IMG/VR virus record: IMGVR_UViG_2554235189_000012
Span: 1 to 17,836 of that record
Source of the DNA: a virus
Taxonomy: Duplodnaviria > Heunggongvirae > Uroviricota > Caudoviricetes
Reading direction: 5' to 3' (one strand)
Length of the DNA stretch: 17,836 bases
This document shows positions 1 to 16,675 of the stretch, piece after piece. The stretch's first letter is position 1; each line of letters starts with the position of its first letter. Under the pieces are notes generated by a model. That model searched no databases and was not told the origin of the DNA. It saw only the letters and a list, made by a program, of their open reading frames with translations. The translations under genes and the position numbers were made by a program.

Positions 1-1248
1 ATGGCACTGAATATTCCATTCAGAAATGCGTACTATCGTTTTGCATCCAGTTACTCATTTCTCTTTTTTATTTCCTGGTCGCTGTGGTGGTCGTTATACG
101 CTATTTGGCTGAAAGGACATCTAGGGTTGACAGGGACGGAATTAGGTACACTTTATTCGGTCAACCAGTTTACCAGCATTCTATTTATGATGTTCTACGG
201 CATCGTTCAGGATAAACTCGGTCTGAAGAAACCGCTCATCTGGTGTATGAGTTTCATCCTGGTCTTGACCGGACCGTTTATGATTTACGTTTATGAACCG
301 TTACTGCAAAGCAATTTTTCTGTAGGTCTAATTCTGGGGGCGCTATTTTTTGGCTTGGGGTATCTGGCGGGATGCGGTTTGCTTGATAGCTTCACCGAAA
401 AAATGGCGCGAAATTTTTATTTCGAATATGGAACAGCGCGCGCCTGGGGATCTTTTGGCTATGCTATTGGCGCGTTCTTTGCCGGCATATTTTTTAGTAT
501 CAGTCCCCATATCAACTTCTGGTTGGTCTCGCTATTTGGCGCTGTATTTATGATGATCAACATGCGTTTTAAAGATAAGGATCACCAGTGCGTAGCGGCA
601 GATGCGGGAGGGGTAAAAAAAGAGGATTTTATCGCAGTTTTCAAGGATCGAAACTTCTGGGTTTTCGTCATATTTATTGTGGGGACGTGGTCTTTCTATA
701 ACATTTTTGATCAACAACTTTTTCCTGTCTTTTATGCAGGTTTATTCGAATCACACGATGTAGGAACGCGCCTGTATGGTTATCTCAACTCATTCCAGGT
801 GGTACTCGAAGCGCTGTGCATGGCGATTATTCCTTTCTTTGTGAATCGGGTAGGGCCAAAAAATGCATTACTTATCGGAGTTGTGATTATGGCGTTGCGT
901 ATCCTTTCCTGCGCGCTGTTCGTTAACCCCTGGATTATTTCATTAGTGAAGTTGTTACATGCCATTGAGGTTCCACTTTGTGTCATATCCGTCTTCAAAT
1001 ACAGCGTGGCAAACTTTGATAAGCGCCTGTCGTCGACGATCTTTCTGATTGGTTTTCAAATTGCCAGTTCGCTTGGGATTGTGCTGCTTTCAACGCCGAC
1101 TGGGATACTCTTTGACCACGCAGGCTACCAGACAGTTTTCTTCGCAATTTCGGGTATTGTCTGCCTGATGTTGCTATTTGGCATTTTCTTCTTGAGTAAA
1201 AAACGCGAGCAAATAGTTATGGAAACGCCTGTACCTTCAGCAATATAG
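1..1248 (+). CDS. cscB: Sucrose permease, LacY-family MFS sugar:H+ symporter
   Basis: 415-aa ORF beginning at window base 1 with TAG stop at 1246-1248; strongly hydrophobic multi-TM profile; sequence recognised from memory as E. coli CscB (MALNIPFRNAYYRF...). Confidence 0.9.
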   Translation: MALNIPFRNAYYRFASSYSFLFFISWSLWWSLYAIWLKGHLGLTGTELGTLYSVNQFTSILFMMFYGIVQDKLGLKKPLIWCMSFILVLTGPFMIYVYEPLLQSNFSVGLILGALFFGLGYLAGCGLLDSFTEKMARNFYFEYGTARAWGSFGYAIGAFFAGIFFSISPHINFWLVSLFGAVFMMINMRFKDKDHQCVAADAGGVKKEDFIAVFKDRNFWVFVIFIVGTWSFYNIFDQQLFPVFYAGLFESHDVGTRLYGYLNSFQVVLEALCMAIIPFFVNRVGPKNALLIGVVIMALRILSCALFVNPWIISLVKLLHAIEVPLCVISVFKYSVANFDKRLSSTIFLIGFQIASSLGIVLLSTPTGILFDHAGYQTVFFAISGIVCLMLLFGIFFLSKKREQIVMETPVPSAI

Positions 1249-1257
1249 ACGTAAACT

Positions 1258-1301
1258 TTTTCCGGTTGTTGTCGATAGCTCTATATCCCTCAACCGGAAA
1301 A
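1258..1301. repeat. Perfect 11-bp inverted repeat (TTTTCCGGTTG ... CAACCGGAAAA) with 22-nt loop, 10 nt after cscB stop
   Basis: Read directly from sequence; no U-run on either strand after the stem, so not a classical intrinsic terminator. Confidence 0.5.
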
Positions 1302-1689
1302 TAATAATAGTAAAATGCTTAGCCCTGCTAATAATCGCCTAATCCAAACGCCTCATTCATGTTCTGGTACAGTCGCTCAAATGTACTTCAGATGCGCGGT
1401 TCGCTGATTTCCAGGACATTGTCGTCATTCAGTGACCTGTCCCGTGTATCACGGTCCTGCGAATTCATCAAGGAATGCATTGCGGAGTGAAGTATCGAGT
1501 CACGCCATATTTCGCTATCAGGATTCTGTGTGATGGTTACATCGCCCGGCTCAGGGCTGTTTAGTCATCAGCGCTTTCTGACAGTGCTGAGATTTCAACC
1601 TGTTGCAGTAAAAATGAGTAGATATAAGGCAAGTGTGCTGCCAAACCCATCTTTTACGGGGTGAAGGTAGATTTCGTTTGAAGGGTATC

Positions 1690-1704
1690 TGGTGTCCCCT
1701 GCAG
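1690..1704 (-). other. 15-nt segment matching the 3' end (T-stem/acceptor/CCA) of an Arg tRNA (argW-like), reverse orientation; candidate att core remnant
   Basis: tggtgtcccctgcag is the reverse complement of CTGCAGGGGACACCA, which I recall as the 3' end of E. coli tRNA-Arg(CCU); identity stops after 15 nt, so no complete tRNA gene is present. Confidence 0.4.
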
Positions 1705-1777
1705 ACATCTACTTGAAGCGACAGGGGATTGATTGGAATGGTGTTTTTTAGATGTGAAAAATATTTTACCCGCTATT

Positions 1778-1978
1778 TTACCCATTGGCGCGGCTTAAGA
1801 GCTTATTTTTGAATTCACAATGGTCACGATATAACCATCTTGCTCGCCCGTGGATAACTTTGGCTTTTGGCAGGTCGCCGGACTTAATCCGGTCGTAGAT
1901 GAAGGTTTTACCGAAGCCAGTATCGGCCATGATGAATTTCAAATCAACCAGTGAATCAGGCTGGAGTTCGTGTTGCAT
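1778..1978 (-). CDS. xis: Excisionase-like / AlpA-family small DNA-binding protein
   Basis: 66-aa ORF with GGAG about 9 nt upstream of ATG; motif FIMADTGFGKTFIYDRIKSGDLPKAKVIHGRARW resembles prophage excisionase/AlpA-type winged-helix proteins; located at the prophage-chromosome junction. Confidence 0.5.
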   Translation of the reverse strand: MQHELQPDSLVDLKFIMADTGFGKTFIYDRIKSGDLPKAKVIHGRARWLYRDHCEFKNKLLSRANG

Positions 1979-1997
1979 GAGTGCTATCTCCGAATAT

Positions 1998-2013
1998 GGA
2001 ATCGAACCTGCAA
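1998..2013 (-). other. 16-nt segment matching the T-arm of the same Arg tRNA (reverse orientation), on the other side of xis
   Basis: ggaatcgaacctgcaa is the reverse complement of TTGCAGGTTCGATTCC, the stretch I recall immediately 5' of the 15-nt piece at 1690-1704 in argW; flanks do not continue the tRNA. Confidence 0.3.
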
Positions 2014-2020
2014 ATCAGGT

Positions 2021-2043
2021 AATAAAAAACCGCCATCAGGCGG
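2021..2043 (-). terminator. Putative intrinsic terminator on minus strand (5-bp stem CCGCC/GGCGG, loop TGAT, then TTTTTTATT)
   Basis: Hairpin plus U-run read from sequence; short stem, so moderate confidence; sits at the 3' end of the IS2-interrupted ORF. Confidence 0.4.
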
Positions 2044-2083
2044 CTTGGTGTTCTTTCAGTTCTTCAATACAAATATTGGTTAC

Positions 2084-2088
2084 GTCTG
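2084..2088. repeat. IS2 target-site duplication GTCTG (left copy)
   Basis: Identical 5-bp GTCTG directly abuts both ends of the IS2 element; 5-bp duplication is typical for IS2. Confidence 0.8.
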
Positions 2089-2099
2089 TGGATTTGCCC

Positions 2100-3005
2100 C
2101 TATATTTCCAGACATCTGTTATCACTTAACCCATTACAAGCCCGCTGCCGCAGATATTCCCGTGGCGAGCGATAACCCAGCGCACTATGCGGATGCCATT
2201 CGTTATAATGCTCGAACGCCTCTGCAAGGTTCTTTGCTGCCGTTAACCCGTCTGGTTTGGGCATGATACTGATGTAGTCACGCTTTATCGTTTTCACGAA
2301 GCTCTCTGCTATTCCGTTACTCTCCGGACTCCGCACCGCCGTGTTCTTCGGTTCAAGTCCCAACATCCGGGCGAACTGGCGTGTTTCATTAGCCCGGTAG
2401 CATGAACCATTATCCGTCAGCCACTCCACTGGAGACGACGGAAGATCGTTGCCGAAGCGGCGTTCCACCGCTCCCAGCATGACGTCCTGTACTGTTTCAC
2501 TGTTGAAGCCGCCGGTAGTCACCGCCCAGTGCAGTGCCTCACGATCACAGCAGTCCAGCGCGAACGTGACACGCAGTCTCTCTCCGTTATCACAGCAGAA
2601 CTCGAACCCGTCAGAGCACCATCGCTGATTGCTTTCTTTCACGGCCACTCTGCCTGTATGTGCCCGTTTCGATGGCGGTACAGCAGGTTTTCGCTCAAGC
2701 AACAGCGCATTCTGGCGCATGATCCGGTAAACACGTTTGGCATTGATCGCAGGCATACCATCAAGTTCTGCCTGTCTGCGAAGCAGCGCCCATACCCGAC
2801 GATAACCATACGTGGGCAGCTCTCCGATAACATGGTGTATACGGAGAAGCACATCCGTATCATCAGTGTGACGACTGCGGCGGCCATCCATCCAGTCATC
2901 GGTTCGTCTGAGAATGACGTGCAACTGCGCACGCGACACCCGGAGACAACGGCTGACTAAGCTTACTCCCCATCCCCGGGCAATAAGGGCGCGTGCGCTA
3001 TCCAC
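2100..3005 (-). CDS. insD: IS2 transposase OrfB (DDE integrase-type catalytic domain)
   Basis: 301-aa [26 protein letters not shown]... recognised as IS2 InsD; overlaps the 3' end of insC as expected for an IS3-family -1 frameshift arrangement. Confidence 0.9.
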
Positions 3006-3328
3006 TTTTTTGCCCGTCCATATTCAACGGCTTCTTTGAGGAGTTCATTTTCCATCGTTTTCTTGCCGAGCAGGCGCTGGAGTTCTTTAATCTGCTTCAT
3101 GGCGGCAGCAAGTTCAGAGGCAGGAACAACCTGTTCTCCGGCGGCCACAGCAGTAAGACTTCCTTCCTGGTATTGCTTACGCCAGAGAAATAACTGGCTG
3201 GCTGCTACACCATGTTGCCGGGCAACGAGGGAGACCGTCATCCCCGGTTCAAAGCTCTGCTGAACAATTGCGATCTTTTCCTGTGTGGTACGCCGTCTGC
3301 GTTTCTCCGGCCCTAAGACATCAATCAT
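2963..3328 (-). CDS. insC: IS2 OrfA (HTH DNA-binding protein)
   Basis: 121-aa [44 protein letters not shown]... recognised as IS2 InsC; the ORF-track entry starts 15 codons further upstream. Confidence 0.9.
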
Positions 3329-3419
3329 CTGTTCTCCAATGACTAGTCTAAAAACTAGTATTAAGACTATCACTTATTTAAGTGATACTGGTTGTCTGGA
3401 GATTCAGGGGGCCAGTCTA

Positions 3420-3424
3420 GTCTG
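3420..3424. repeat. IS2 target-site duplication GTCTG (right copy)
   Basis: See left copy at 2084-2088. Confidence 0.8.
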
Positions 3425-3550
3425 CATGTGCTATCTGCGCCCATATCATCCAGTGGTCATAGCAGTCGTTGATGTTCTCTGCTTCGATAACCCTGTCGAA
3501 TGACTCTCCATTCCATTCACCTGTGACTCGGAAGTGCATTTATCATCTCC

Positions 3551-3577
3551 ATAAAACAAAACTCGCCGTAGCGAGTT
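3551..3577 (-). terminator. Putative intrinsic terminator on minus strand (stem AACTCGC/GCGAGTT, loop TACG, then TTTGTTTTAT)
   Basis: 7-bp inverted repeat followed by a U-rich tract on the minus strand, 43 bp downstream of the 3620-3811 gene. Confidence 0.5.
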
Positions 3578-3619
3578 CAGATAAAAGAAATCCATCAATT
3601 GGTTAGGGTTTTTGTAATT

Positions 3620-3811
3620 CTACGAATTATGTTGTTTTTTAGCTTCAGCTTTCCATTCATCAAAGGCAGTGTCTTTGTTCATGGTGCTGATATTGATCTT
3701 ACGGTCAATATCATATACACGCCACTCACCGTTGGGCCTCTCTTCGCATCTAACTAAGTATGAATTGCCATTAATATCTATGCGTCTGTCTATTTGCATG
3801 AACATTTTCAA
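3620..3811 (-). CDS. Hypothetical small protein (63 aa)
   Basis: ORF MKMFMQIDRRIDINGNSYLVRCEERPNGEWRVYDIDRKINISTMNKDTAFDEWKAEAKKQHNS; AGAGGA upstream of a TTG/ATG start cluster; preceded by an AT-rich region with a TATAAT box and followed by a terminator. Confidence 0.45.
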   Translation of the reverse strand: MKMFMQIDRRIDINGNSYLVRCEERPNGEWRVYDIDRKINISTMNKDTAFDEWKAEAKKQHNS

Positions 3812-3874
3812 TTTTCGAATCCTCTTTAATATGCATTTTTTGCTATTTCAGTAGTTTACTATTGATGAGGCGTT

Positions 3875-3880
3875 ATTATA
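3875..3880 (-). promoter_or_regulatory. Candidate promoter -10 element TATAAT on minus strand, upstream of the 3620-3811 gene
   Basis: Consensus TATAAT on the minus strand in the AT-rich 3812-3922 intergenic region; no well-spaced -35 (TTGCAT lies only 12 nt upstream), so weak evidence. Confidence 0.3.
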
Positions 3881-3922
3881 CACACTTCATTAATGCAAGC
3901 ATCTTTATGCTATGCTACTAAT

Positions 3923-4204
3923 TTAGCAATTGATATTCACCTTTATCGCGTATACCTTTACCGGTTTATCACCGAAGTGGGGGTGTGTGATTGTTTTCAC
4001 TTCATATCCTCCATACGGAACATCAATTCTGCGACTGGAGTCGTCGCGCTTCGGATATCCCTTTGTGATAATCAGGCGGTCATACTCCCGGAACATAATT
4101 CGCTTATTCCAATAGTCATTACACAGGCGATACTCTTCCGTTTTCTCCCCGCGAATCATGGCATCGAAGTATTCACCTTTGACGGCAAGTTGTAGGTTAG
4201 CCAC
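3923..4204 (-). CDS. ASCH/PUA-like small protein (93 aa)
   Basis: GTG start preceded by AGGAGG at 6-nt spacing; motif YFDAMIRGEKTEEYR resembles the conserved N-terminal signature of ASCH-domain proteins; start overlaps the stop of the upstream gene. Confidence 0.45.
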   Translation of the reverse strand: MANLQLAVKGEYFDAMIRGEKTEEYRLCNDYWNKRIMFREYDRLIITKGYPKRDDSSRRIDVPYGGYEVKTITHPHFGDKPVKVYAIKVNINC

Positions 4205-4499
4205 GGTTAACCTCCTGCGGAGTAGCCTTTACAAGCACTGGTGTAAATCCATCTTCATTAAGGTTATGAATATAGACTTCTGTTCTCCTGCGCTCTTCAA
4301 CGTTTAATATTGTTTCTGGATCATAAACCCATACTTTCATTCGACTATTCCATGAAGAAATCGCTTCAGATCTAGTTCGTTTTTCTGGTCCTTGGGCACC
4401 ACATTTGCATGACACATAGCGCATTTTCCCTCTGATACTGAATGAGTATCCGATATTAAGCACAGTGGAACCACAGAATGGGCAGCGATATAGATTCAT
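4197..4499 (-). CDS. Lar-family restriction-alleviation-like protein with C-terminal extension (100 aa)
   Basis: N-terminal CPFCGS...(22 aa)...CKCGAQGP...AISSWNSR matches the Lar-family zinc-ribbon pattern; start overlaps upstream stop (ATGA). Confidence 0.6.
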   Translation of the reverse strand: MNLYRCPFCGSTVLNIGYSFSIRGKMRYVSCKCGAQGPEKRTRSEAISSWNSRMKVWVYDPETILNVEERRRTEVYIHNLNEDGFTPVLVKATPQEVNRG

Positions 4500-5029
4500 A
4501 AATCATCCACCTTAGGCGCAGCTGAGACAGCAACATTCCAGAACTCAGAAAACATATTGTATGCACCAGATAGATTGGAAGTGGCATACCCTCCAAGCTC
4601 ACTTCTAATCTGAACGGCTCTCATCATTTCCGGTGCTAACTCCTTCGGCACCATAACCCAACCATCCGGAGTTACCGGAGAGTTGCCCGACAGCTCGTTC
4701 AACTTGTAAGTTTGGCTTACAGGTTCGGCTTCCAGTTCTGCTATGCGCTTTTTTGCTGCTTCCAGCTCGCCAAGCAGCGCCAAGACGGTAGCTGGATTGG
4801 CTGCGGCGATGAATTCAGCATTGGCCTGCTGTTCCATTTGGAAATCTTCATCGAAACCGCTTTCAGGATGCGCTCCTTCAATTCTGCAAATGGGAATATA
4901 TCCAACAACTTCACGATGAATTAGCGCATCACCAGCATCAAATCTCTCCTCTCCATATTCGAGCGACCACACACCACACGTTGCTTTCTCTGCCTTTTCA
5001 CGCAGTGCCTGATAGTCAATCTTGCTCAT
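4496..5029 (-). CDS. Ead/Ea22-like prophage protein (177 aa)
   Basis: N-terminus MSKIDYQALREKAEKATCGVW resembles the conserved N-terminus of Ead/Ea22-like proteins of lambdoid prophages; typical position between xis and the recombination genes. Confidence 0.5.
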   Translation of the reverse strand: MSKIDYQALREKAEKATCGVWSLEYGEERFDAGDALIHREVVGYIPICRIEGAHPESGFDEDFQMEQQANAEFIAAANPATVLALLGELEAAKKRIAELEAEPVSQTYKLNELSGNSPVTPDGWVMVPKELAPEMMRAVQIRSELGGYATSNLSGAYNMFSEFWNVAVSAAPKVDDL

Positions 5030-5030
5030 G

Positions 5031-5330
5031 TCACATCACCCTGAATCCGTTGCATTTACGTAAAAAATCGCAGATATAGCCCTTCATTTTTTCGTGCCAA
5101 TCTCGATCATTCCCATTGCACCAACCATAAGGTGGAGTCCAGTTTTCTATCAGAGCAGCCATTTTCTTTGCTTTTGCAGGAGTAGCTGTTGCGGTATCGC
5201 AGTAATGACGAGTGTCGATCAACGTATCCATACCATCGATATCAAGTACGCAAAACCATGTGTGATTCGGCATTTCAACAGATGGTATTTGTTGCCCACG
5301 TCGACGTTTATCAATAAGACATACAGTCAT
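5031..5330 (-). CDS. Hypothetical protein (99 aa)
   Basis: ORF with AAGGTGG upstream of ATG; start overlaps upstream stop (ATGA); no family recognised. Confidence 0.5.
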   Translation of the reverse strand: MTVCLIDKRRRGQQIPSVEMPNHTWFCVLDIDGMDTLIDTRHYCDTATATPAKAKKMAALIENWTPPYGWCNGNDRDWHEKMKGYICDFLRKCNGFRVM

Positions 5331-5872
5331 GGTTCCACCTTCTCTATTTGCTTAAGACCGTCTCTCACTGCATTAAGTACGCGTTCCAGATACTGGTATT
5401 TCGGGTTTGGTGCCGTTGGCCAGTCGGCATACCACGGATCATCACCAAAGAGATTCAGCAGTTTGTTACCGACACCGAAACAACAGCAGCTTTCTTTTAC
5501 GTCATCGGCGTTTTCCGCCTCGTCCCACATTTCGCGAGCCTGTACCGCGTCGATTTCTCTCTCTCTTCGTAAATTTATGATTTCTGACTTCACGAAAAGC
5601 AGATTTGCATCGTTGTCATCGTCGACCGTGCTTCGCAGTTGAGGGTCGAAATAGCCGATTAGATACTCGTTGCTGACCCGCTTAATGAACGTCTGCACAT
5701 CATCACCGCCCATAGCAAACCAAGCCGCAGTCCACGCTTTTCCGTAGCAGGTGATGGTGATTCTTCCCTTACCAGGTTCGTAGTTTTCAATCATCACTCG
5801 AACCGGATCTAGTCGCTCTGCACCGGTTATAACGAATGACAACACATCAATCTTTTCAACCGTTACACTCAC
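5327..5872 (-). CDS. Hypothetical protein (~181 aa, GTG start)
   Basis: The ORF track extends this frame to 6064, but that extension overlaps the Lar-like gene at 5856-6092 in another frame; AGGAGG lies 6 nt upstream of an in-frame GTG at 5872, the start preferred here. Start remains uncertain. Confidence 0.45.
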   Translation of the reverse strand: MSVTVEKIDVLSFVITGAERLDPVRVMIENYEPGKGRITITCYGKAWTAAWFAMGGDDVQTFIKRVSNEYLIGYFDPQLRSTVDDDNDANLLFVKSEIINLRREREIDAVQAREMWDEAENADDVKESCCCFGVGNKLLNLFGDDPWYADWPTAPNPKYQYLERVLNAVRDGLKQIEKVEP

Positions 5873-6092
5873 TGGTTGCCTCCTTTGCTCGCTGATTCCA
5901 CTCTGCTCTAACCTCTGAATAAAAAATCGCGCAGTCATTTCCAGGCGCTGCATATTTGCTACCAGATTGAGCGCGACACGTACCGCATCGAACGAAATAG
6001 AATCGACCGCCAGAGCCATATTCAGGGTGATCTGCTTCGCTGGCAACGTGCGCTGCGCCGCCACAGAATGGACATGGTAGTAGGTTGCTCAT
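5856..6092 (-). CDS. Lar-family restriction-alleviation-like protein, second paralog (78 aa)
   Basis: [16 protein letters not shown]...FYFVRCGTCRAQSGSKYA...AEWNQRA matches the Lar zinc-ribbon pattern; GAGGGAG upstream of ATG at 6092; start overlaps upstream stop (ATGA). Confidence 0.55.
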   Translation of the reverse strand: MSNLLPCPFCGGAAHVASEADHPEYGSGGRFYFVRCGTCRAQSGSKYAAPGNDCAIFYSEVRAEWNQRAKEATSECNG

Positions 6093-6565
6093 GAATGCAC
6101 TCCCTCGTGAAGCTGTTCCGCACAATGCAGCAGGGCGTCCGTCGCTTCTTTCACCGTAACGATATCGCCATCGTCCAGCCCGGCAACCGTCGCGTCCTTA
6201 ACGAACACCGAGCAAAGGTCATTAAACGCCTGCGCCCGTACTTCAGCCAGAAAAGCATCGGTAGCTGGAGTTTCAGTAACATCATCTTCCCATTCGCTAA
6301 ACTCCTCACGACAAAAGTCATTAAATTCCTTCTCAGATTGCTTAAGCGATGTATTTTCAGCAGCCATCTTCGCGCATTTAGCCTCAAGGTTATCAATCGT
6401 GATTCCAGCAGAACGACACTCCCGCAACGCAGTTTCCAGTTTTGATTCAAGCTCACCGAACTTACGCACCAGATATTCAGCGTTTGTTTCGTTAACCTTT
6501 AAATCTCGTGGGATGCATTTACCTTTCAGAAAACCATCCATCTCAATTAGTGACATTTGTTTCAT
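6089..6565 (-). CDS. Hypothetical, predicted coiled-coil protein (158 aa)
   Basis: [19 protein letters not shown]...; heptad-like charged repeats; no family recognised. Confidence 0.5.
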
Positions 6566-6726
6566 TTCTTCCCACTCCGCAACATTGCATTCAGATATTT
6601 GTTGTCATTAACAGAACCGAAACTCTTTCTCTTAAGCAATTCCTCTCTCGATGGCATTGGCTTTACGCGTTGGCGAATAATCATTTCTGCCGGAAGAATG
6701 CCGGGATTGTATGCAAGTCCTCTCAT
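6562..6726 (-). CDS. Hypothetical small basic protein (54 aa), below ORF-track size cutoff
   Basis: ATG at 6726 overlaps the stop of the upstream gene (ATGA), and its own TGA overlaps the ATG of the downstream gene; [54 protein letters not shown]; exactly fills the gap between two called genes. Confidence 0.35.
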
Positions 6727-7004
6727 GATTTACTCTCAACGAACTGGTCAATAGCCATGCTAAGTGACATACCTAAAGTTTCGATATGCTGCTGAATATC
6801 CTGTAGCGTCTGCGCCTGAGATAACAGGATTTCACGGTTGCATAACTCTTTAACCAGATGCTCAAACTTGCTGTAATAACCGATACGACTTAGTGTTTCT
6901 TTCCCTGCATTCTCTCCTTCTTTGATAATTCCTCTTTCGCTAAGAATCAGGTCGTGTTTGGTTCCGGTAATAACGTATTTTCCGAGGTCGATGTTTAGCT
7001 TCAT
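6723..7004 (-). CDS. Hypothetical protein (93 aa)
   Basis: ORF with GGAG upstream of ATG at 7004; no family recognised. Confidence 0.5.
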
Positions 7005-7020
7005 TGTTAATTACTCCATG

Positions 7021-7335
7021 TTAATTTATTCGTATGCCTGCTCTTTCTTCATCGAGTTTTTTTAGCTTGTATCGCATAGCTCTTACTGAATAAATTGAGC
7101 GGCAGGTTGCAATTGCTATTTCTTCTGCGGAGAACTTACCGAAAAGTGATACTTCGGCTCTTGTCCATCGTCTTCCACGAAGTCGGCTAACAATGTCAGC
7201 GCCAATCCTTGTTGCTTTCGCCATTACTGCTTTTTCAGTCCTTTCCAGTTTTTCAGCGATAACTTCAACTGGCATTGTCGCCGCTACTTCGCGCAAGAAA
7301 TCGACTTCCCATTTCTCCCATGGAGTCTTTTTCAT
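7021..7335 (-). CDS. Putative DNA-binding protein with two Myb/SANT-like repeats (104 aa)
   Basis: Two tandem ~40-aa segments each with a conserved Trp followed by helix-like A/E/I-rich stretches (WEKWEVDFLREVAATMPVEVIAEKL and RRWTRAEVSLFGKFSAEEIAIATCR); assignment is by pattern only. Confidence 0.4.
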   Translation of the reverse strand: MKKTPWEKWEVDFLREVAATMPVEVIAEKLERTEKAVMAKATRIGADIVSRLRGRRWTRAEVSLFGKFSAEEIAIATCRSIYSVRAMRYKLKKLDEERAGIRIN

Positions 7336-7346
7336 AGGCGATACCG

Positions 7347-7829
7347 TTATTTGATAAGAAGTGAAGGTTTCCCAACCTTGAGTTGAGCGCCTGGGATATT
7401 TATTCCTGCTTTTAGTTGGTGCTTGATTGCCAACTTGTCGGCTTTAATTGTCGTTTCAAACTCAACGTATTCAGGAGGAATGGCGCTTGAGTCGATGATT
7501 TCTACAGTTTCTGACGGTTTGCGGATTGTTACCTGGTGAATACCTGCTCGAATCTTTTTCTTGCCAACCATTTCAAGCGATGACGCTATATATGCCATAA
7601 TGCTATCAATCTTATTTTGAATTACTGCTGCTCGTTCATTCAGTGACTTTGCCTCGTCCTTGAGGCGTTCAGCATAACCAGATTCATTTTTAATAATGGC
7701 AAGAAGTTGCTCTATTTTATCGGTAAATTCTCCTTCCATGCCTTCTATTGTGTCAGCAATCATCTCTGGCTCTAAATCTGAATCCATCAGCTTTGCGTAT
7801 TCATTGGCTATTTCATACAGTTTGCTCAC
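7347..7829 (-). CDS. Mu Gam-like / Gp157-like protein (~160 aa)
   Basis: Directly downstream of recT; N-terminal predicted coiled coil and C-terminal G-x-V-x-I-R-x-P pattern resemble Mu Gam / siphovirus Gp157 family proteins; GTG start at 7829 preferred because GGAGG lies 6 nt upstream. Confidence 0.4.
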   Translation of the reverse strand: MSKLYEIANEYAKLMDSDLEPEMIADTIEGMEGEFTDKIEQLLAIIKNESGYAERLKDEAKSLNERAAVIQNKIDSIMAYIASSLEMVGKKKIRAGIHQVTIRKPSETVEIIDSSAIPPEYVEFETTIKADKLAIKHQLKAGINIPGAQLKVGKPSLLIK

Positions 7830-8724
7830 TGGCAACCTCCAGTTTCGCTTTGCATTCTATGTAAATGGCTTGTACGTTCTGCTGCAATTTCATTCCAGAT
7901 GTCAGGCGATATGCTTCTGCAAAATATCGCTTCAAATCATCCATGTTTTCTGCCTGAGCCATTTCATCGCAAAGAAGTTGTGCTTTATCCATTATTTCCT
8001 GCTGGCGTTTCCGTTCATCTTCGCGGATATCTTCCTCTGATTTGTGCGGCATAACTGGTTCAGTCCATACACCTTCTTCTTCGTTTAGTACGTGAATAGC
8101 ACTATCAAGACGTGATGCCTTAGGCCAATACTTGCTTGCACGCTTTACGACCGTCTTTCGCGCCATCTCATTCCAGTGATTTACCCATGGTCCTTTATCG
8201 CTGAATGCCGCCTTGCTTGTTTTCCTTACAGCCTCAATTTCAGCCAGACTCATCTCTTCCGTTAGATAATCACCTGCTGGCGTCTTAACTGTGCAGTAAA
8301 CGCCAACGATATCACCACGATCACCGAAGGCGTTGTATTTATGGGTTGGTGCTTTATCAAGCCCGTTTGACTCATAGGTATCGTTAGCATGAACAAGTTT
8401 TGCCTGACCCCATGAGATAACACCAGACTCCATTGCAATATGGAGCAATCCCATATAACTGATATCAAGGCACACCATGCCGTCGCGCGGAACCAGATAA
8501 GCCAGTTTGCTAGCCGGGTTTAAGGTGATGCCGATCGCCGCAACATTGATGATGGCGTTCTGTGCGCTGGTTGGATTTGCCAGTGCCGTTTTAGCCAGGT
8601 AATCATTTTTCTGGAAATACTGAATTGCAAACTGGCTTTCCTTAGCCCATGTCACCGTCTGTTCAGTCAATGCTCCGCAGAATAACTGCTCCTGCTGTTT
8701 AACGAATTCAACGATATTGCTCAT
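7813..8724 (-). CDS. recT: RecT-family single-strand annealing recombinase
   Basis: 303-aa ORF; motif GPWVNHWNEMARKTVVKRASKYWP closely parallels GPWVTHWEEMAKKTAIRRLFKYLP of E. coli RecT; GGAG RBS; position matches bet of lambda. Confidence 0.8.
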   Translation of the reverse strand: MSNIVEFVKQQEQLFCGALTEQTVTWAKESQFAIQYFQKNDYLAKTALANPTSAQNAIINVAAIGITLNPASKLAYLVPRDGMVCLDISYMGLLHIAMESGVISWGQAKLVHANDTYESNGLDKAPTHKYNAFGDRGDIVGVYCTVKTPAGDYLTEEMSLAEIEAVRKTSKAAFSDKGPWVNHWNEMARKTVVKRASKYWPKASRLDSAIHVLNEEEGVWTEPVMPHKSEEDIREDERKRQQEIMDKAQLLCDEMAQAENMDDLKRYFAEAYRLTSGMKLQQNVQAIYIECKAKLEVASEQTV

Positions 8725-9032
8725 GCTGCTTCTCCATAAATGTGTCTGCGTTTGAATATTGCGAAGGCATATTCAGCCTTAACTCTTTCGGTTATTGCAT
8801 CCCAGAACCATTCAGCGGCTTTTTCCTGATAGTCACAGTCATCATCTTCCAGCCAGTCGATAGCGTCCTTAGTGTGTTCATCTGGTTTATATGAGCGAAG
8901 CATTTCGCTTATTGGGTCGCAACGTTTGCAGAGGCGATCAACTTCACTGTTGATTCGTTCGTAATCATCATCAGTAAAACTTGCGATGATTTGCGATATT
9001 TCACGCTTATCATTCAGAGTCAGAATCATCAT
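8721..9032 (-). CDS. Hypothetical acidic protein (103 aa) at the gam/abc position
   Basis: ORF with AGGAGAAAG upstream of ATG; Asp/Glu-rich; lies between kil and recT where lambda has gam and P22 has abc1/abc2; function not assignable from sequence. Confidence 0.5.
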   Translation of the reverse strand: MMILTLNDKREISQIIASFTDDDYERINSEVDRLCKRCDPISEMLRSYKPDEHTKDAIDWLEDDDCDYQEKAAEWFWDAITERVKAEYAFAIFKRRHIYGEAA

Positions 9033-9113
9033 CTTTCTCCTGTTCTTTGTGCTGATTGAGCATTTCTTTCATCTGACGAATGAATTCTTCGTCTGACCAG
9101 TTATCTGTAAAAC

Positions 9114-9266
9114 TCATTTCCTGCGATACCACGGAAGGTTGATAGCTGATTTCATCGCTTTATTTGCTTCAAGCCACATTTTTGAATCACCAATAAATCT
9201 GGCTATTACTGCTTTGTTCTGTGCAGCACGAAGCATCTGGTGATTAATGGCTATTTCATTGCGCAT
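9114..9266 (-). CDS. kil: Kil-like host cell-division inhibitor (50 aa), below ORF-track size cutoff
   Basis: MRNEIAINHQMLRAAQNKAVIARFIGDSKMWLEANKAMKSAINLPWYRRK shares the IA-FIGD-KM-EA pattern I recall from lambda Kil; immediately downstream of cIII as in lambda; GAGG RBS 7 nt upstream. Confidence 0.45.
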   Translation of the reverse strand: MRNEIAINHQMLRAAQNKAVIARFIGDSKMWLEANKAMKSAINLPWYRRK

Positions 9267-9376
9267 AATAAGACCTCAACTCTTTTCCATCCGTCACGTA
9301 ATTTACGGGTGATTCGTTCAAGTAAAGATTCGGAAGGGCAGCCAGCAACAGGCCACCCTGCAATGGCATATTGCAT
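9251..9376 (-). CDS. cIII: CIII-like regulator (inhibitor of FtsH-mediated CII degradation)
   Basis: MQYAIAGWPVAGCPSESLLERITRKLRDGWKR matches the lambda CIII N-terminal region as I recall it; AAGGAG RBS; the ORF-track entry 9251-9478 includes a non-coding upstream extension. Confidence 0.8.
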   Translation of the reverse strand: MQYAIAGWPVAGCPSESLLERITRKLRDGWKRVEVLLCAMK

Positions 9377-9436
9377 GGTGTGCTCCTTATTTATACATAA
9401 CGAAAAACGCCTCTCGTGAAGCGTTATTGGTATGCA

Positions 9437-9463
9437 TATAAAAAGGCCCTCACACTGGAGGGC
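9437..9463 (-). terminator. Intrinsic terminator on minus strand (stem GCCCTC/GAGGGC, 6-nt loop, then CTTTTTAT) upstream of cIII
   Basis: GC-rich 6-bp hairpin followed by a U-run on the minus strand; analogous in position to a tL terminator that would need N antitermination for read-through. Confidence 0.55.
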
Positions 9464-9599
9464 AAAGAAGATTTCCAATAATCAGAACAAGTCGGCTCCT
9501 GTTTAGTTACGAGCGACATTGCTCCGTGTATTCACTCGTTGGAATGAATACACAGTGCAGTGTTTATTCTGTTGTTTATGCCAAAAATAAAGGCCACTA

Positions 9600-9851
9600 T
9601 CAGGCAGCTTTGTTGTAAATGTTGCAGGTATCAAGTAAGTAATTAGATGGAGCGCCATAAATTATGAATTCATCGTTTGTCTGGTCCATCTCCATCTCTT
9701 GGCCTATTGCCATTCTTGCGTCAGTGTCATCAGCGGCGAAGCATAAAACAGCCCACGCACCCATTGTTTTAAAAAGAACTGCAATTGGCTGTGGTTTTAC
9801 TGAATTTGCGTTAGCGCGAAAATCACAAATCGCACTTTCATGAAATTCCAT
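9600..9851 (-). CDS. Hypothetical protein (83 aa)
   Basis: ORF MEFHESAICDFRANANSVKPQPIAVLF...; preceded by the conserved 26-nt leader and a GAGGTGA RBS. Confidence 0.5.
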   Translation of the reverse strand: MEFHESAICDFRANANSVKPQPIAVLFKTMGAWAVLCFAADDTDARMAIGQEMEMDQTNDEFIIYGAPSNYLLDTCNIYNKAA

Positions 9852-9858
9852 ATCTCAC

Positions 9859-9884
9859 CTCAAATAATTGGTTTGCTGCCAAAA
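9859..9884 (-). promoter_or_regulatory. Conserved 26-nt 5' leader element, copy 1 (minus strand TTTTGGCAGCAAACCAATTATTTGAG)
   Basis: 25/26 identical to a second copy at 10096-10121; both end 7 nt upstream of an ATG start codon. Confidence 0.4.
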
Positions 9885-9893
9885 GAAAACCGA

Positions 9894-10088
9894 CTATGCG
9901 TCCTGTCGTTTTTCCGACGCTCTATTCATTTCCTGCCAGATGGCAACTACAGCATCTTCAATATTTCTTTCCTTCAGATCCCATAAATCCCACAGGCCTG
10001 GCATCTCATGACCAAGTTCATCTAAAAGTTTTTTTGCTCCAGCCTGAATCACGTTCTCACTCAGTTGAATCTCTGTTGTTGATTTCAT
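9894..10088 (-). CDS. Hypothetical protein (64 aa; alternative start at 10154 would give 86 aa)
   Basis: ATG at 10088 is preceded by GAGAGGA and the conserved leader; the upstream in-frame ATG at 10154 overlaps the previous stop (ATGA) and cannot be excluded. Confidence 0.45.
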   Translation of the reverse strand: MKSTTEIQLSENVIQAGAKKLLDELGHEMPGLWDLWDLKERNIEDAVVAIWQEMNRASEKRQDA

Positions 10089-10095
10089 AATTCCT

Positions 10096-10121
10096 CTCAA
10101 ATAAGTGGTTTGCTGCCAAAA
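10096..10121 (-). promoter_or_regulatory. Conserved 26-nt 5' leader element, copy 2 (minus strand TTTTGGCAGCAAACCACTTATTTGAG)
   Basis: See copy 1 at 9859-9884. Confidence 0.4.
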
Positions 10122-10150
10122 CAATGAACCATCCGGAAATTCCAGATAGT

Positions 10151-10375
10151 TCATAATTCACTCTTCAATACTTCCAACTTACTAATCGCCGATAGATATC
10201 CGCGCTGATAGGGCATCATCATTCCTTCGAGCTTGCCACTTCTTAACTCCTCCCTGAGCAATTGTATTGCTTGATCAATAACCTCTGCCTTAGCGTCCTT
10301 TATGGCTTGCTTGCGGGGCTTTGCTTTCTGCTTTGGCAGATTTCTCAAGCATGATGGAATGTATGTCTGATTCAT
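10151..10375 (-). CDS. Hypothetical basic protein (74 aa) immediately downstream of N
   Basis: ATG 3 nt after the N stop codon, GAGG upstream; Lys/Arg-rich; no family recognised. Confidence 0.5.
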   Translation of the reverse strand: MNQTYIPSCLRNLPKQKAKPRKQAIKDAKAEVIDQAIQLLREELRSGKLEGMMMPYQRGYLSAISKLEVLKSEL

Positions 10376-10378
10376 CAC

Positions 10379-10651
10379 TTACCTCGCTGTCAGTTGTTTT
10401 GATTTCCGGTAGCCTGCCGCGTAAAGAGCTACGTTTGGCAGGCAAATACTTCCACTGCATTCATCTGCCTTCTTGCAGCGAAGGCCTCCGAGTGATGCTG
10501 CTTTATCTGCTCTGACGCAACCAGAGAGCTTTAGCGCAATTTTTCGCGCCAGTCGCTGCTCTTGCATTGCCTGTTCACGTTGAGCCTGTCTGCGTGCTCT
10601 GCGGCGATTTCTGGCGTTATCGTCAGCCAGATATGTAATGACTACTGCCAT
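10379..10651 (-). CDS. N: N-like transcription antitermination protein with arginine-rich motif
   Basis: 90-aa ORF with GGAGG RBS; Arg-rich N-terminus (NARNRRRARRQAQREQ); central and C-terminal segments (ARKIALKLSGCVRADKAASLG..., VALYAAGYRKSKQLTAR) resemble phage 21 and P22 N proteins as recalled; lies downstream of pL/nutL. Confidence 0.75.
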   Translation of the reverse strand: MAVVITYLADDNARNRRRARRQAQREQAMQEQRLARKIALKLSGCVRADKAASLGGLRCKKADECSGSICLPNVALYAAGYRKSKQLTAR

Positions 10652-10758
10652 GTTGACCTCCGATGATTGACTTTGGCGGTGACGCGCCGGGTGCTTATCT
10701 TCCGGTTGCCGTCGTGCAGCTGCACTTCACGTCACCCCAAAGCCAACTACTCTTTGGT

Positions 10759-10799
10759 TCCCGCATTTCGGCGGGACAATCCCATCAATGTTAAAGAGC
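10759..10799 (-). promoter_or_regulatory. nutL-like site: boxA GCTCTTTAAC plus boxB hairpin TCCCGCCGAAATGCGGGA (minus strand)
   Basis: The same boxA and boxB sequences occur on the plus strand between cro and cII (nutR); each lies downstream of its promoter. Confidence 0.55.
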
Positions 10800-10845
10800 C
10801 TGCCAATCTGTTCCGTTTGGCTACCAGCGTCCTGCTGATGGCTAA

Positions 10846-10874
10846 AGAATACTGTAGGTATTTTATTGTGTAAA
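10846..10874 (-). promoter_or_regulatory. Candidate pL promoter (-35 TTTACA, 17-nt spacer, -10 TATTCT) overlapping operators
   Basis: Hexamers read on the minus strand overlap two AATAC-N5-GTATT operators; the same -10 hexamer and operator arrangement occur at pR. Confidence 0.4.
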
Positions 10875-10932
10875 TACCCAAGGTATTTATTTTTGATGAA
10901 ATAATGATAAGCAAATGAATACAAAGGATATT
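10848..10932. promoter_or_regulatory. oL operator region: three AATAC-N5-GTATT-type sites (10848-10862, 10873-10887, 10918-10932)
   Basis: AATACTGTAGGTATT, AATACCCAAGGTATT (part of a perfect 17-bp palindrome AAATACCCAAGGTATTT), AATACAAAGGATATT; same half-site as the oR sites. Confidence 0.55.
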
Positions 10933-11018
10933 TATTTTTTCGGTGTCTGCTTGTTCAGTGCTTTTTATGCGGGATATGTGAAGTGGATCCCGATAGCTAT
11001 TGCTGCCGGGATTATAGG

Positions 11019-11387
11019 TTAGTCAGCGAAGGTTAAGACGAGAATTACCTTAATGATGTCTGCTACAACAGACACGGCCATAGATAAACCAAAGACGATC
11101 CAAGCCACAGTGATGTCTTCACTACCATCGTATAGAGTTCCGTAATCACTGGTGTAAGGCGTAAATGTCGCGCCTTGATACAATAGGTATAAGCTTGATC
11201 CATAGAGGATAAATGCAGATATCCCTTGTATTGCTATGATCACCAGAATCATGAAACGAGCTGATCTATGCGCCCAAGCCTGGCTTATTTTTTCTGATAG
11301 AGATTTCGCAATAAAAGTATGCGCTAAGCCGTAAATTGTCGAGATTGCCAACATCCCAAAAAAGCTTGCTATAGCGGTTCCAACCAT
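11019..11387 (-). CDS. Small integral membrane protein (~122 aa, three predicted TM helices) downstream of cI
   Basis: ORF begins 18 nt after the cI stop with AAGGGG upstream of ATG at 11387 (the ORF track starts it at a TTG inside the cI stop); three hydrophobic segments; occupies the position of rexAB in lambda. Confidence 0.6.
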   Translation of the reverse strand: MVGTAIASFFGMLAISTIYGLAHTFIAKSLSEKISQAWAHRSARFMILVIIAIQGISAFILYGSSLYLLYQGATFTPYTSDYGTLYDGSEDITVAWIVFGLSMAVSVVADIIKVILVLTFAD

Positions 11388-11404
11388 AATCGCCCCTTGC
11401 GTGA

Positions 11405-12121
11405 TCAAACCAGCCTTAGTTTTGTCTCAATTGCAACGCCTATAATCTTGCAGTTTCCATTGATTGGCACGAGAGGCCATGCAGGATTAAGTCCCTTGAG
11501 GTATTTATTTCCGCCGTCGATTATCAGCTTCTTGAATGTTGCTTCGTTAGAGTCAGAAAGTTTTGCTATGACCAAGCTGCCGTTGATCGCCTCCCTTCCG
11601 GTATCGAAAAGAACGAATGTTCCCTCTGGAATACTTAACCCAACCGGTGCCGTCATTGAATCACCTTCCACTTTAAGCCAGAACGCATTACCTTGAATAT
11701 GCGCGTCAGACTCAAGCCAAACATCTATGTCTTTAATGGTGTATGGTTCGCATGCTTCACACCACGAGCCAGCCTGGATACTGCTTAACACCGGATACCT
11801 CTTTCCTGCTCTGTATTCCCCTGCATACCTTACGTTGGCATCGCTCTTAAGGCTTTCTGCCTGTTCTGCAACCTTGGCAGCAATTGACTGGCTAAAATCA
11901 GCAATTGAGACTTGCAACAAACGTGCAAAACCAGATGCGACCTCAACGTTTAGCGCGTTTCTGCCATTAAGATAATGCCCTACCGCTCCTTGGGTGATAC
12001 CCAGTTCATCAGCGATTGAGTATTGGGTTATTCCCAATTCTTTCTTTTTTGACTCATACAAAGCCTTAAGCCGCTTAGCGTCTTCGAGCTGTTCTGTCGT
12101 CAGTGATTTTTTATTTTCCAT
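11405..12121 (-). CDS. cI: CI-type prophage repressor (HTH_XRE N-terminal domain plus LexA/S24-like C-terminal domain)
   Basis: 238-aa ORF; N-terminus TEQLEDAKRLKALYESKKKELGITQYSIADELG parallels lambda CI; C-terminal FWLKVEGDSMTAP matches the S24 autocleavage domain; divergent from cro with operators between. Confidence 0.9.
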   Translation of the reverse strand: MENKKSLTTEQLEDAKRLKALYESKKKELGITQYSIADELGITQGAVGHYLNGRNALNVEVASGFARLLQVSIADFSQSIAAKVAEQAESLKSDANVRYAGEYRAGKRYPVLSSIQAGSWCEACEPYTIKDIDVWLESDAHIQGNAFWLKVEGDSMTAPVGLSIPEGTFVLFDTGREAINGSLVIAKLSDSNEATFKKLIIDGGNKYLKGLNPAWPLVPINGNCKIIGVAIETKLRLV

Positions 12122-12156
12122 AGCTTAATTCTAATAGCTAAGGTACTTAAACTAAA

Positions 12157-12196
12157 AATACCCTGAGTATTGATTGCTTTGAATACCTGTAGTATT
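12157..12196. promoter_or_regulatory. oR operator region: two AATAC-N5-GTATT sites (12157-12171, 12182-12196)
   Basis: AATACCCTGAGTATT and AATACCTGTAGTATT, 10 bp apart, between cI and cro; a third site nearer cI could not be defined. Confidence 0.55.
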
Positions 12197-12198
12197 CT
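12170..12198 (+). promoter_or_regulatory. Candidate pR promoter (-35 TTGATT, 17-nt spacer, -10 TATTCT)
   Basis: Hexamers overlap the two oR sites; cro ATG about 30 nt downstream. Confidence 0.4.
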
Positions 12199-12227
12199 TT
12201 GTTCATGGTTAATAACGGAGAGTGCAT

Positions 12228-12422
12228 ATGATTCGAATGACACTTGCCGATTACGCCAAAATCCATGGACAGGCTAAAGCAGCCAGTGACTTTGGTGTAA
12301 TCCAGTGCGCTATCAGCAAGGCCATTCTGGCAGGCCGTAACATTATGGTTACGGTAAAGCCTGATGGCAGTGTGATTGGAGAGGAAGTTCGTCCTTTCCC
12401 AAGCAACAAGAAAAACAAATAG
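12228..12422 (+). CDS. cro: Cro-like repressor
   Basis: 64-aa [65 protein letters not shown], homologous in pattern to lambda Cro; GGAG RBS; the ORF track starts it at an upstream GTG. Confidence 0.8.
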
Positions 12423-12429
12423 TAACACC

Positions 12430-12473
12430 GCTCTTTAACAGTCATGGTCCTCATTCCCGCCGAAATGCGGGAA
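12430..12473 (+). promoter_or_regulatory. nutR-like site: boxA GCTCTTTAAC plus boxB hairpin TTCCCGCCGAAATGCGGGAA
   Basis: 7-bp stem and 6-nt loop hairpin 14 nt after boxA, between cro and cII; boxB core identical to nutL. Confidence 0.55.
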
Positions 12474-12530
12474 TACAACGCGCATAAGTTGATGCGCATA
12501 ACTTCTTATTTGTTAAGGAAATACTTACAT

Positions 12531-12824
12531 ATGGTTCGTGCAAACAAACGCAACGAGGCTCTACGAATCGAGAGTGCGTTGCTTAACAAAATCGCAATGC
12601 TTGGAACTGAGAAGACAGCGGAAGCTGTGGGAGTTGATAAGTCGCAGATCAGCAGGTGGAAGAGGGACTGGATTCCAAAGTTCTCAATGCTGCTTGCTGT
12701 TCTTGAATGGGGCGTCGTTGACGACGATATGGCTCGATTGGCACGACAAGTTGCTTCGATTCTCACCAATAAAAAACGCCCGGCGGCAACCGAGCGTTCT
12801 GAACAAATCCAGATGGAATTCTGA
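12531..12824 (+). CDS. cII: CII transcriptional activator (lambda-type)
   Basis: 97-aa product [51 protein letters not shown]... is, as far as I can recall, essentially identical to lambda CII; upstream RBS region also lambda-like. Confidence 0.9.
12540..12553 (-). promoter_or_regulatory. CII-binding TTGC-N6-TTGC repeat of a pRE-type promoter (minus strand)
   Basis: Minus strand reads TTGCGTTTGTTTGC inside the 5' end of cII, as in lambda pRE. Confidence 0.5.
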
Positions 12825-12846
12825 GGTCATTACTGGATCTATCAAC
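12770..12846 (-). ncRNA. oop: Possible oop-like antisense RNA (terminator hairpin within 3' end of cII; promoter only partly conserved)
   Basis: Lambda-like sequence at the cII 3' end includes a GC-rich hairpin followed by TTTTTTATTGG on the minus strand; a CATAAT -10 is retained but the -35 region differs because the downstream sequence is not lambda-like. Extent inferred by analogy. Confidence 0.3.
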
Positions 12847-12856
12847 AGGAGTAATT

Positions 12857-13002
12857 ATGACAAAACAACTCAGTCCTTACCAGGACAAAATTCACAAACA
12901 CATACTACGTGATCGCTTCCTGTCCAGCTTCAAGCAGCCTGGTCGATTCAGGGCTGAGTTGGAAAAAGTGAAGCTGATGCAGAAGGAGAAAGGTCATGAG
13001 TA
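12857..13002 (+). CDS. Hypothetical 48-aa protein between cII and the O-like gene (reminiscent of P22 orf48 by position and size)
   Basis: AGGAG 6 nt upstream of ATG at 12857; [48 protein letters not shown]; stop overlaps the O-like start; its RBS and first codons coincide with where lambda O would start. Confidence 0.4.
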
Positions 13003-13856: not shown

Positions 13857-13859
13857 ACC

Positions 13860-13967
13860 ATGAAATCAAAAATCAAATCGCTACTGGTCGCTGGTTATAA
13901 CCACGGCTGGTTAAGTATTTCGTTTGTCGATTTCTGGTTTAAAAATCTCAATCTGAGGGAATCATGA
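13860..13967 (+). CDS. Possible 35-aa coupling ORF between O-like and primase-helicase genes
   Basis: ATG 4 nt after the O-like stop with AGGTGA upstream; MKSKIKSLLVAGYNHGWLSISFVDFWFKNLNLRES; its stop overlaps the helicase ATG (ATGA). Could equally be non-coding. Confidence 0.25.
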   Translation: MKSKIKSLLVAGYNHGWLSISFVDFWFKNLNLRES

Positions 13968-15844: not shown

Positions 15845-15873
15845 ATGACCATCTACATTACTGAGCTAATAAC

Positions 15874-15906
15874 AGGCCTGCTGGTAATCGCAGGCCTTTT
15901 TATTTG
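15874..15906 (+). terminator. Intrinsic terminator (8-bp stem AGGCCTGC/GCAGGCCT, 8-nt loop, then TTTTATTTG), tR2-like
   Basis: Read directly; immediately downstream of the primase-helicase gene. Confidence 0.55.
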
Positions 15907-15932
15907 CATCAGAAACAGAGTGAGGTGAGAGC

Positions 15933-16121: not shown

Positions 16122-16146
16122 CACCCCAGCACACTAATGGAGAGAA

Positions 16147-16347: not shown

Positions 16348-16358
16348 TGGAGAGGAAT

Positions 16359-16673: not shown

Positions 16674-16675
16674 CG

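Follow-up and report, generated by a model that had tools for sequence, protein, structure and literature searches.

Two distinct Lar-family genes in a translationally coupled accessory gene chain of a putative Sf6/HK620-type lambdoid prophage

We analyzed a stretch of 17,836 nucleotides, here called the window (positions 1 to 17,836 of the IMG/VR virus record IMGVR_UViG_2554235189_000012), and in particular a cluster of small genes at 3923-6092 that includes two members of the Lar family. Every gene in this interval lies on the minus strand, at the coordinates given by an earlier note on this DNA. Read in the direction of transcription, the genes encode a Lar protein of 78 amino acids (5856-6092), which we refer to as Lar2; a phiTE_072-family protein of 181 amino acids (5327-5872); a DUF7739 protein of 99 amino acids (5031-5330); an Ead/Ea22-like protein of 177 amino acids (4496-5029); another Lar protein of 100 amino acids (4197-4499), which we refer to as Lar1; and an ASCH-like protein of 93 amino acids (3923-4204). 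The gene structures, family memberships, and coupling geometry of the cluster, as well as its operon context and mosaic origin, were observed directly. The region is of a known kind, with a slightly uncommon combination of modules.

Profile searches bore out the earlier proposal that Lar-type genes are present at both 4197-4499 and 5856-6092. Both products exceeded the gathering threshold of 28.6 bits for the Pfam family Lar_restr_allev (PF14354), Lar1 with 35.7 bits over residues 2-53 and Lar2 with 38.5 bits. The cut-off of the TIGR03655 model, 39.6 bits, was passed by Lar1 with 58.7 bits and missed by Lar2 with 29.8 bits. In an alignment of both window proteins with RalR of the Rac prophage of E. 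coli MG1655 and diverse family members, four cysteines in the pattern CPFCG...CxxC or CxC, a tryptophan, and an asparagine were invariant. These residues are C6, C9, C31, C33, W50, and N51 in Lar1, whose second knuckle has the form CxC. Lar2 has C7, C10, C36, and C39 followed by EWNQR, with a 9-residue, Cys-containing insertion ahead of the WN helix. Both ribbons are predicted to bind zinc. The 78-amino-acid Lar is also called by the NCBI Prokaryotic Genome Annotation Pipeline (PGAP) in two related loci (L001 and L002).

The C-terminal extension of Lar1, estimated earlier at about 45 residues, proved to comprise 46 (residues 55-100, after a Lar domain at residues 2-54), and its conservation extends to relatives with as little as 38% identity. 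Among enterobacterial orthologues with 66-97% identity, this tail is conserved. We searched 1.84 billion representatives exhaustively with Lar1 and obtained 226 matches at an E value of ≤0.001, nearly all limited to residues 3-55; the only full-length, nonfragment matches that covered the tail were the proteins P0133 (61% identity) and P0136 (38% identity). The AlphaFold2 (AF2) model of Lar1, which has a predicted local distance difference test (pLDDT) score of 78, contains a strand-helix-strand arrangement in the tail. One further protein, P0012, is a 74-amino-acid chimera in which the N terminus of the lambda N peptide precedes the final 26 residues of Lar1; its sequence is evidence that the Lar1 gene has recombined at its 3′ end, and its inclusion in a profile yields spurious N-protein matches. 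Two to four Lar domains in tandem occur within single polypeptides in many family members, with four in P0140 and two each in P0138, P0157, and P0198. Several Lar domains per element are thus a recurring theme of the family, and a double dose is not very unusual.

The earlier note had described the two Lar genes as paralogs, a term that we consider misleading. Over 68 residues, Lar1 and Lar2 share 29% identity, and the GC contents of their genes are 0.41 and 0.52, respectively. Close counterparts of each, with 98-100% identity, are found singly in other phages: Lar1 matches Sf6 gp20 at 98% and an open reading frame (ORF) of Stx1a phages at 99%, and Lar2 matches an ORF of HK106, ST104, Phi75, UAB_Phi20, and HF4s at 98.7%. 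In DNA sequence, the available homologues of Lar2 show 98.7-100% identity, and Lar-like genes of approximately 100 Vibrio phages encode proteins with 50% identity to it. Close relatives of Lar1 and of Lar2 were never found in one and the same phage record. We rejected a local duplication on the grounds of the 29% identity, the differing GC contents, and the presence of single-copy relatives at ≥98% identity in different phages. Because identity is low, GC content differs, and each gene occurs singly elsewhere, Lar1 and Lar2 are separate mosaic modules that were joined by recombination, a history that fits the shuffling of modules at gene boundaries, of which the chimera P0012 is an illustration. 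The Lar2-type protein of Vibrio phage K249 (L026, 3001-3378) is 50% identical and has the Cys-containing insertion as well. At its C terminus it carries a fused tail that we judged by eye to be DUF551-like from the pattern WISVEDKLPE...WQPLP; DUF551 often terminates Ead/Ea22 proteins in enterobacterial loci.

The combination of the two genes is uncommon, as judged from distinct genomic contexts encoding exactly the window proteins: a second Lar gene was present in 1 of the 10 contexts with Lar1 and in 2 of the 9 with Lar2. The same two-Lar layout occurs in at least two draft Escherichia coli assemblies (those behind L008 and L023), and in L008 the locus is 99.8% identical. Flanking genes differ from locus to locus, and a scan of the genome contigs with Lar1 revealed one locus. 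Among 5,426 complete E. coli genomes, 2,042 contained pieces of a 1.9-kb block of this DNA, and not one covered ≥80% of it.

The genes for Lar2, the phiTE_072-family protein, and the DUF7739 protein were adjacent in all nine contexts with identical Lar2 (L017-L025). In two of these, L019 (Lar2 block at 3426-5062) and L020, the block follows lambda P and DUF1064 genes and thus occupies a nin-type position, not the ea region, which indicates that it has moved between two accessory regions. We considered an obligate three-gene system and downgraded it, since ST104 and HK106, with 98.7% identical Lar2, have an Ead-type gene after Lar2, Sf6 has the DUF7739 gene without Lar2 and phiTE_072, and the genes after the Vibrio phage Lar2 homologue have no similarity to phiTE_072 or DUF7739. 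The linkage most likely reflects the recent sharing of one block of DNA.

The earlier claim that the cluster forms a translationally coupled chain was upheld by the geometry of the gene boundaries. ATGA start/stop overlaps are found at 4496-4499, 5327-5330, 6089-6092, 6562-6565, and 6723-6726. Longer overlaps join the GTG start of the ASCH-like gene to the stop of Lar1 (8 nucleotides, 4197-4204) and the start of the phiTE_072-family gene to the stop of Lar2 (17 nucleotides, 5856-5872), and a single nucleotide, position 5030, separates the DUF7739 and Ead/Ea22-like genes. A Shine-Dalgarno-like sequence lies upstream of every start in the chain. Upstream of Lar2, also on the minus strand, the chain continues with a 158-amino-acid coiled-coil protein (6089-6565; phrog_614, E value of 3.9e-57), which we term HK620 hkaH-like after the description “similar to HK620p08” carried by HK106_033, and with two small proteins, DUF2737 (6562-6726) and DUF5405 (6723-7004). 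The evidence for this pair consists of matches to phrog_1117 and PF17399 (25.8 bits) and the PGAP names of their homologues. The final gene of the chain is a 63-amino-acid phage ORF (3620-3811, minus strand) with a full-length match to phrog_16329 (E value of 8.5e-49), beyond which lies a terminator-like hairpin at 3578-3559 on the same strand.

The genes within the interval could each be assigned to a family. The DUF7739 protein matched PF24881 with 73.9 bits and phrog_1239 with an E value of 3.3e-54; its region is 93% identical to Sf6, in which gp22 is its counterpart. The phiTE_072-family protein matched phrog_3451 (E value of 2e-87), identical genes in L008 and L017-L025 carry the precomputed family PF26211, and PGAP calls a homologue of 187 amino acids in L002. 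The presence of an Ead/Ea22-like gene, also noted earlier, is confirmed by a PF13935 score of 77.9 bits (cut-off, 27 bits) over residues 2-102. These residues form a conserved N-terminal domain, the only part that many PHROGs have in common with it, and the C-terminal part is variable.

For the ASCH-like protein, which starts with GTG and matches phrog_625 (E value of 3.8e-50), the earlier ASCH/PUA-like assignment holds at the level of signature residues and fails at the level of the Pfam profile. ASCH (PF04266) scored 15.7 bits against a threshold of 21.2 bits (E value of 0.024). We found 627 homologues, for which the NCBI name is “ASCH domain-containing protein,” and none of the 120 homologues among the matches listed has an entry in the precomputed Pfam field. 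The GxKxxExR motif that defines ASCH proteins (PMC6803910) corresponds to G19, K21, E24, and R26, which are invariant in 25 homologues. In the AF2 model (pLDDT of 88), a helix spans residues 10-17 and a strand spans residues 23-27, placing the motif at the junction of helix 1 and strand 2. The top Foldseek matches of this model were 3iuw, 2z0t, 5gus, and YqfB (9kyh); the top 19 PDB matches were almost all ASCH-family proteins, PH0355, ZmASCH, and YqfB among them, followed by YTH domains. These scores are weak, with a best E value of 0.014, template modeling (TM) scores of 0.49-0.57, and no match at an E value of ≤0.001. We therefore accept the product as having a predicted ASCH-like fold, not as a strict member of the Pfam family.

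The wider window places the cluster in a leftward operon. Upstream of the chain, on the minus strand, are genes for a Gp157-family protein and RecT (7347-8724; PF05565, 127 bits, and PF03837, 112 bits), the cIII gene (9251-9478), which holds the lambda cIII thermoregulator RNA element Lambda_thermo (9331-9389; Rfam RF01804, 88.5 bits), and the gene for the N antiterminator (10379-10651; PF25694, 59 bits). A consensus scan gave a promoter-like match at a pL-like site (10874-10846, minus strand), beyond which lie CI, CII, replication protein O, and primase/helicase genes. The same scan found no promoter-like and no terminator-like site on the minus strand from 7727 to 3578. This result, together with the pL-like site, suggests a single transcription unit, and the cluster would be transcribed from pL; N and the pL-like site probably drive the whole leftward operon. 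The order N, cIII, RecT, Gp157, cluster, and then Sf6-like xis/attP homology, on one strand throughout and with no internal promoter-like or terminator-like site, is the basis for our assignment of the interval to the ea region of a pL operon.

On the downstream side, the window opens with a gene for a LacY-type oligosaccharide permease (1-1248) that is cscB-like and in related loci lies within a csc-like sucrose cluster. Homology to the Sf6 TorI-like xis gene, gene 17, and attP core, at 97% identity, covers approximately 1690-2087 and stops near 1690, a position that, by this sequence comparison, marks the prophage-host junction beside the permease gene. An integrase is absent from the cscB-like side of the prophage, as is expected for the Sf6/HK620-type placement of attP. 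A complete insertion sequence, IS2 (2089-3419, minus strand; NF006918 [TnpB], 727.6 bits, and NF006928 [TnpA], 275.8 bits), bounds the cluster downstream and lies outside it. It is flanked by a 5-bp target duplication, interrupts a 55-amino-acid phage ORF of which a 40-amino-acid remnant is left at 3417-3539, and is missing from L008, the otherwise 99.8%-identical locus of another assembly.

In the explanation that we favor, the prophage sits in an E. coli genome next to the cscB-like permease gene, and infection or induction would lead to N-antiterminated transcription from pL through cIII and the RecT and Gp157 genes. The transcript would then enter the chain of overlapping small genes, which would be translated as one coupled series. 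Exchangeable modules make up the chain as a mosaic, and recombination has put two Lar-family genes into one operon: Lar1, of the Sf6 gp20 type with its strand-helix-strand tail, and Lar2, of the HK106/ST104 type with its internal insertion. Each Lar may act on a Type IA restriction-modification complex of the host early in infection, such that restriction of unmodified phage DNA would be alleviated and methylation favored, as lambda Ral does. Taken as a whole, with the interval read as the “ea” accessory region at the promoter-distal end of a pL operon in an Sf6/HK620-type lambdoid prophage of E. coli, this explanation has in our judgment a somewhat better than even chance.

Any function of these genes, restriction alleviation included, is a predicted one. 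Of the possible roles, restriction alleviation appears the most likely for Lar1 and Lar2, and we would place its probability a little short of even. It is suggested by homology to Rac Lar and by a like position downstream of recT and near xis. Rac Lar reportedly does the same as lambda Ral, an observation attributed to King and Murray in 1995, and to our knowledge it is the only family member with a restriction-alleviation phenotype. Several points weigh against this role. The family name seems to rest on that one member, to which the window proteins are 31-33% identical, and Lar2 scored below the stricter TIGR03655 cut-off (29.8 versus 39.6 bits). Rac Lar is RalR, which has also been reported as a nonspecific DNase (endonuclease) toxin with a small RNA antitoxin, RalA (PMC4041452). 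The window Lar genes lie 4-6 kb from pL and would be expressed later than lambda ral, which is awkward for the protection of incoming DNA. Finally, related prophages encode lambda-type Ral in addition to Lar, which suggests either redundancy or that Lar does something else.

The identity of Rac Lar with the RalR toxin (PMC4041452), together with the placement of both window proteins in the same Pfam family, raises the question of whether one or both Lar proteins might be DNase toxins like RalR, each part of a type I toxin-antitoxin module that stabilizes the prophage. We searched for RalA (Rfam RF02694) and found none at an E value of ≤1 in window positions 3400-6700 and none at the gathering threshold in the whole window; as a positive control, RalA of Rac was recovered at 225 bits. 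The Lar genes are also embedded in a coupled lytic-phase operon and do not stand alone with an antisense partner, and the RalR equivalog model, which scores RalR itself at 166 bits, did not match either window protein. We consider such toxins very unlikely and rejected a RalR/RalA module, as no RalA-like RNA was found by a search whose control worked. Another reading would take the Lar domain as a generic small zinc ribbon with nucleic acid or protein as its ligand and have the window proteins and their neighbors serve phage development, not interaction with host defense. This reading can draw on the single family member with a phenotype, the tandem copies of two to four Lar domains in P0140, P0138, P0157, and P0198 and fusions to other modules, such as the DUF551-like tail seen by eye in the Vibrio phage protein, a weak similarity of Lar to Elf1-type zinc ribbons, and the PADLOC defense models, which gave no matches among the ten cluster proteins. 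It must also account for an accessory, nonessential early region with fast turnover between phages, which is typical of host-interaction genes, and for synteny with Rac lar, and we give it only a slight chance. The same empty PADLOC result led us to reject prophage-encoded defense genes. The earlier note had proposed the neighboring genes as candidates for further antidefense functions; in the literature, we found no antidefense role assigned to these families. It had also suggested specialization of the two Lar copies. Lar1 and Lar2 could plausibly be kept together for different targets, either families of Type I enzymes or defense systems, with the tail and the insertion giving specificity. 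Each element is conserved within its own lineage (the extension among relatives of Lar1, the insertion of Lar2 in the 50%-identical Vibrio phage homologues), two Lar genes occur together in independent contexts, among them L025 with different genes in between, and some prophages carry lambda Ral as a third gene. Co-occurrence is nevertheless confined to the minority of contexts counted above (1/10 and 2/9), no single isolated phage combines close relatives of the two, and random module shuffling accounts equally well for the frequency. We know of no target for either subtype. Maintenance for different targets is unlikely in our judgment, and we think it distinctly doubtful that the subtypes are specificity variants rather than redundant copies, with Lar2 perhaps also acting together with the phiTE_072-family and DUF7739 proteins.

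The existence of Lar2 as a gene must itself be weighed against a mechanical ORF list, which gives a 245-amino-acid ORF at 5327-6064 in another frame that overlaps Lar2. If that ORF were the real gene, as in the HK106, ST104, and HK620-type records, Lar2 would be spurious. The other frame is indeed open across Lar2, and the first 74 residues of its product match phrog_4132 with an E value of 1.6e-22. In the two records that we inspected, HK106 and ST104, Lar2 is unannotated and hidden under an over-extended call of the downstream gene, which begins inside Lar2 in the +1 frame, by 28 nucleotides in HK106 (Lar2 at 3001-3231 of L027) and by 73 nucleotides in ST104 (Lar2 at 3001-3225 of L005). However, the Lar2 frame scores above the Pfam threshold and keeps all family-invariant residues, and its product has 50%-identical homologues in Vibrio phages. 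Its start has a Shine-Dalgarno sequence and ATGA coupling to the gene upstream, whereas a ribosome-binding site is lacking before the GTG at 6064 and the GTG at 5872 is preceded by AAGGAGG. The short form is also the one that PGAP chooses in related genomes. Moreover, the gene after Lar2 varies (phiTE_072 in the window, Ead type in ST104 and HK106), and yet the extended calls all begin inside Lar2, which is the pattern expected of over-extended gene calls. From the ribosome-binding site, the Vibrio homologues, and the nature of the phrog_4132 match, we rejected the 245-amino-acid ORF; phrog_4132 was probably built from over-extended calls of this sort. A spurious Lar2 is thus extremely improbable, and the supported gene within 5327-6064 is, by these sequence features, 5327-5872, encoding 181 amino acids.

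If the favored explanation, a mosaic pL-operon segment with two recombined Lar modules, is correct, the locus extends by one the mosaic combinations of an accessory region that is already well catalogued in P22-like and lambdoid prophages, and little changes. Every gene of the region is already annotated at NCBI under these family names in many E. coli genomes. What the locus does bring out is that Lar1 and Lar2 represent two clearly distinct, widespread Lar subtypes and that Lar2, hidden as it is in the HK106 and ST104 records, deserves an annotation fix.

Comparison with known phages and proteins sets these features in context. The Ead/Ea22 proteins of P22 and lambda (PF13935) share with the window protein the conserved N-terminal domain and the position in the ea region; the C-terminal 75 residues of the window protein are a different variable module (phrog_12449), and its relatives end in DUF551 or other tails. 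With the E. coli N4-acetylcytidine (ac4C) amidohydrolase YqfB, the Zymomonas ribonuclease ZmASCH, and human EOLA1, the ASCH-like protein has in common the GxKxxExR motif and its position between helix 1 and strand 2; a beta-barrel with helices may also be shared. It differs from them in its shorter length (93 amino acids), its subthreshold Pfam score, and its weak fold matches.

Rac Lar/RalR of E. coli K-12 (b1348) is, like the window proteins, a small CxxC...CxxC zinc ribbon of the same Pfam family with a WNxR helix motif, and its gene lies downstream of recT toward the xis/int end, where the window Lar genes are likewise placed. The window proteins are only 31-33% identical to it; Lar1 adds the 46-residue tail and the CxC second knuckle, Lar2 adds the 9-residue insertion, and neither is reported by the RalR equivalog model NF007260, which gives RalR 166 bits. 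Lambda Ral (PF11058) is a small pL-operon protein and the expected functional analogue of Lar, as well as the best understood one. It alleviates Type IA restriction: M.EcoKI, a maintenance methylase, becomes able to methylate de novo, and phage DNA that lacks modification is methylated where it would otherwise be cut (PMC3874165). It belongs to another Pfam family, and its gene is promoter proximal, whereas the window Lar genes are distal. A tblastn search found no lambda Ral gene in the window. Lambda-type Ral accompanies one or two Lar genes in L008, L012, L014, L024, and L025, with two Lar genes in L008 and L025.

Among phages, HK106, ST104, Phi75, UAB_Phi20, and HF4s have the Lar2 ORF after an hkaH-like gene, as the window does, and continue with an Ead-type gene where the window has phiTE_072. 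Sf6, compared over its gene 19-23 region, lacks Lar2, phiTE_072, and the 158-amino-acid module between DUF2737 and gp22, and it has gp19, which differs from the ASCH-like gene, in the corresponding place. Its order of DUF2737, DUF7739 (gp22), Ead (gp21), and Lar (gp20) is the one found in the window.

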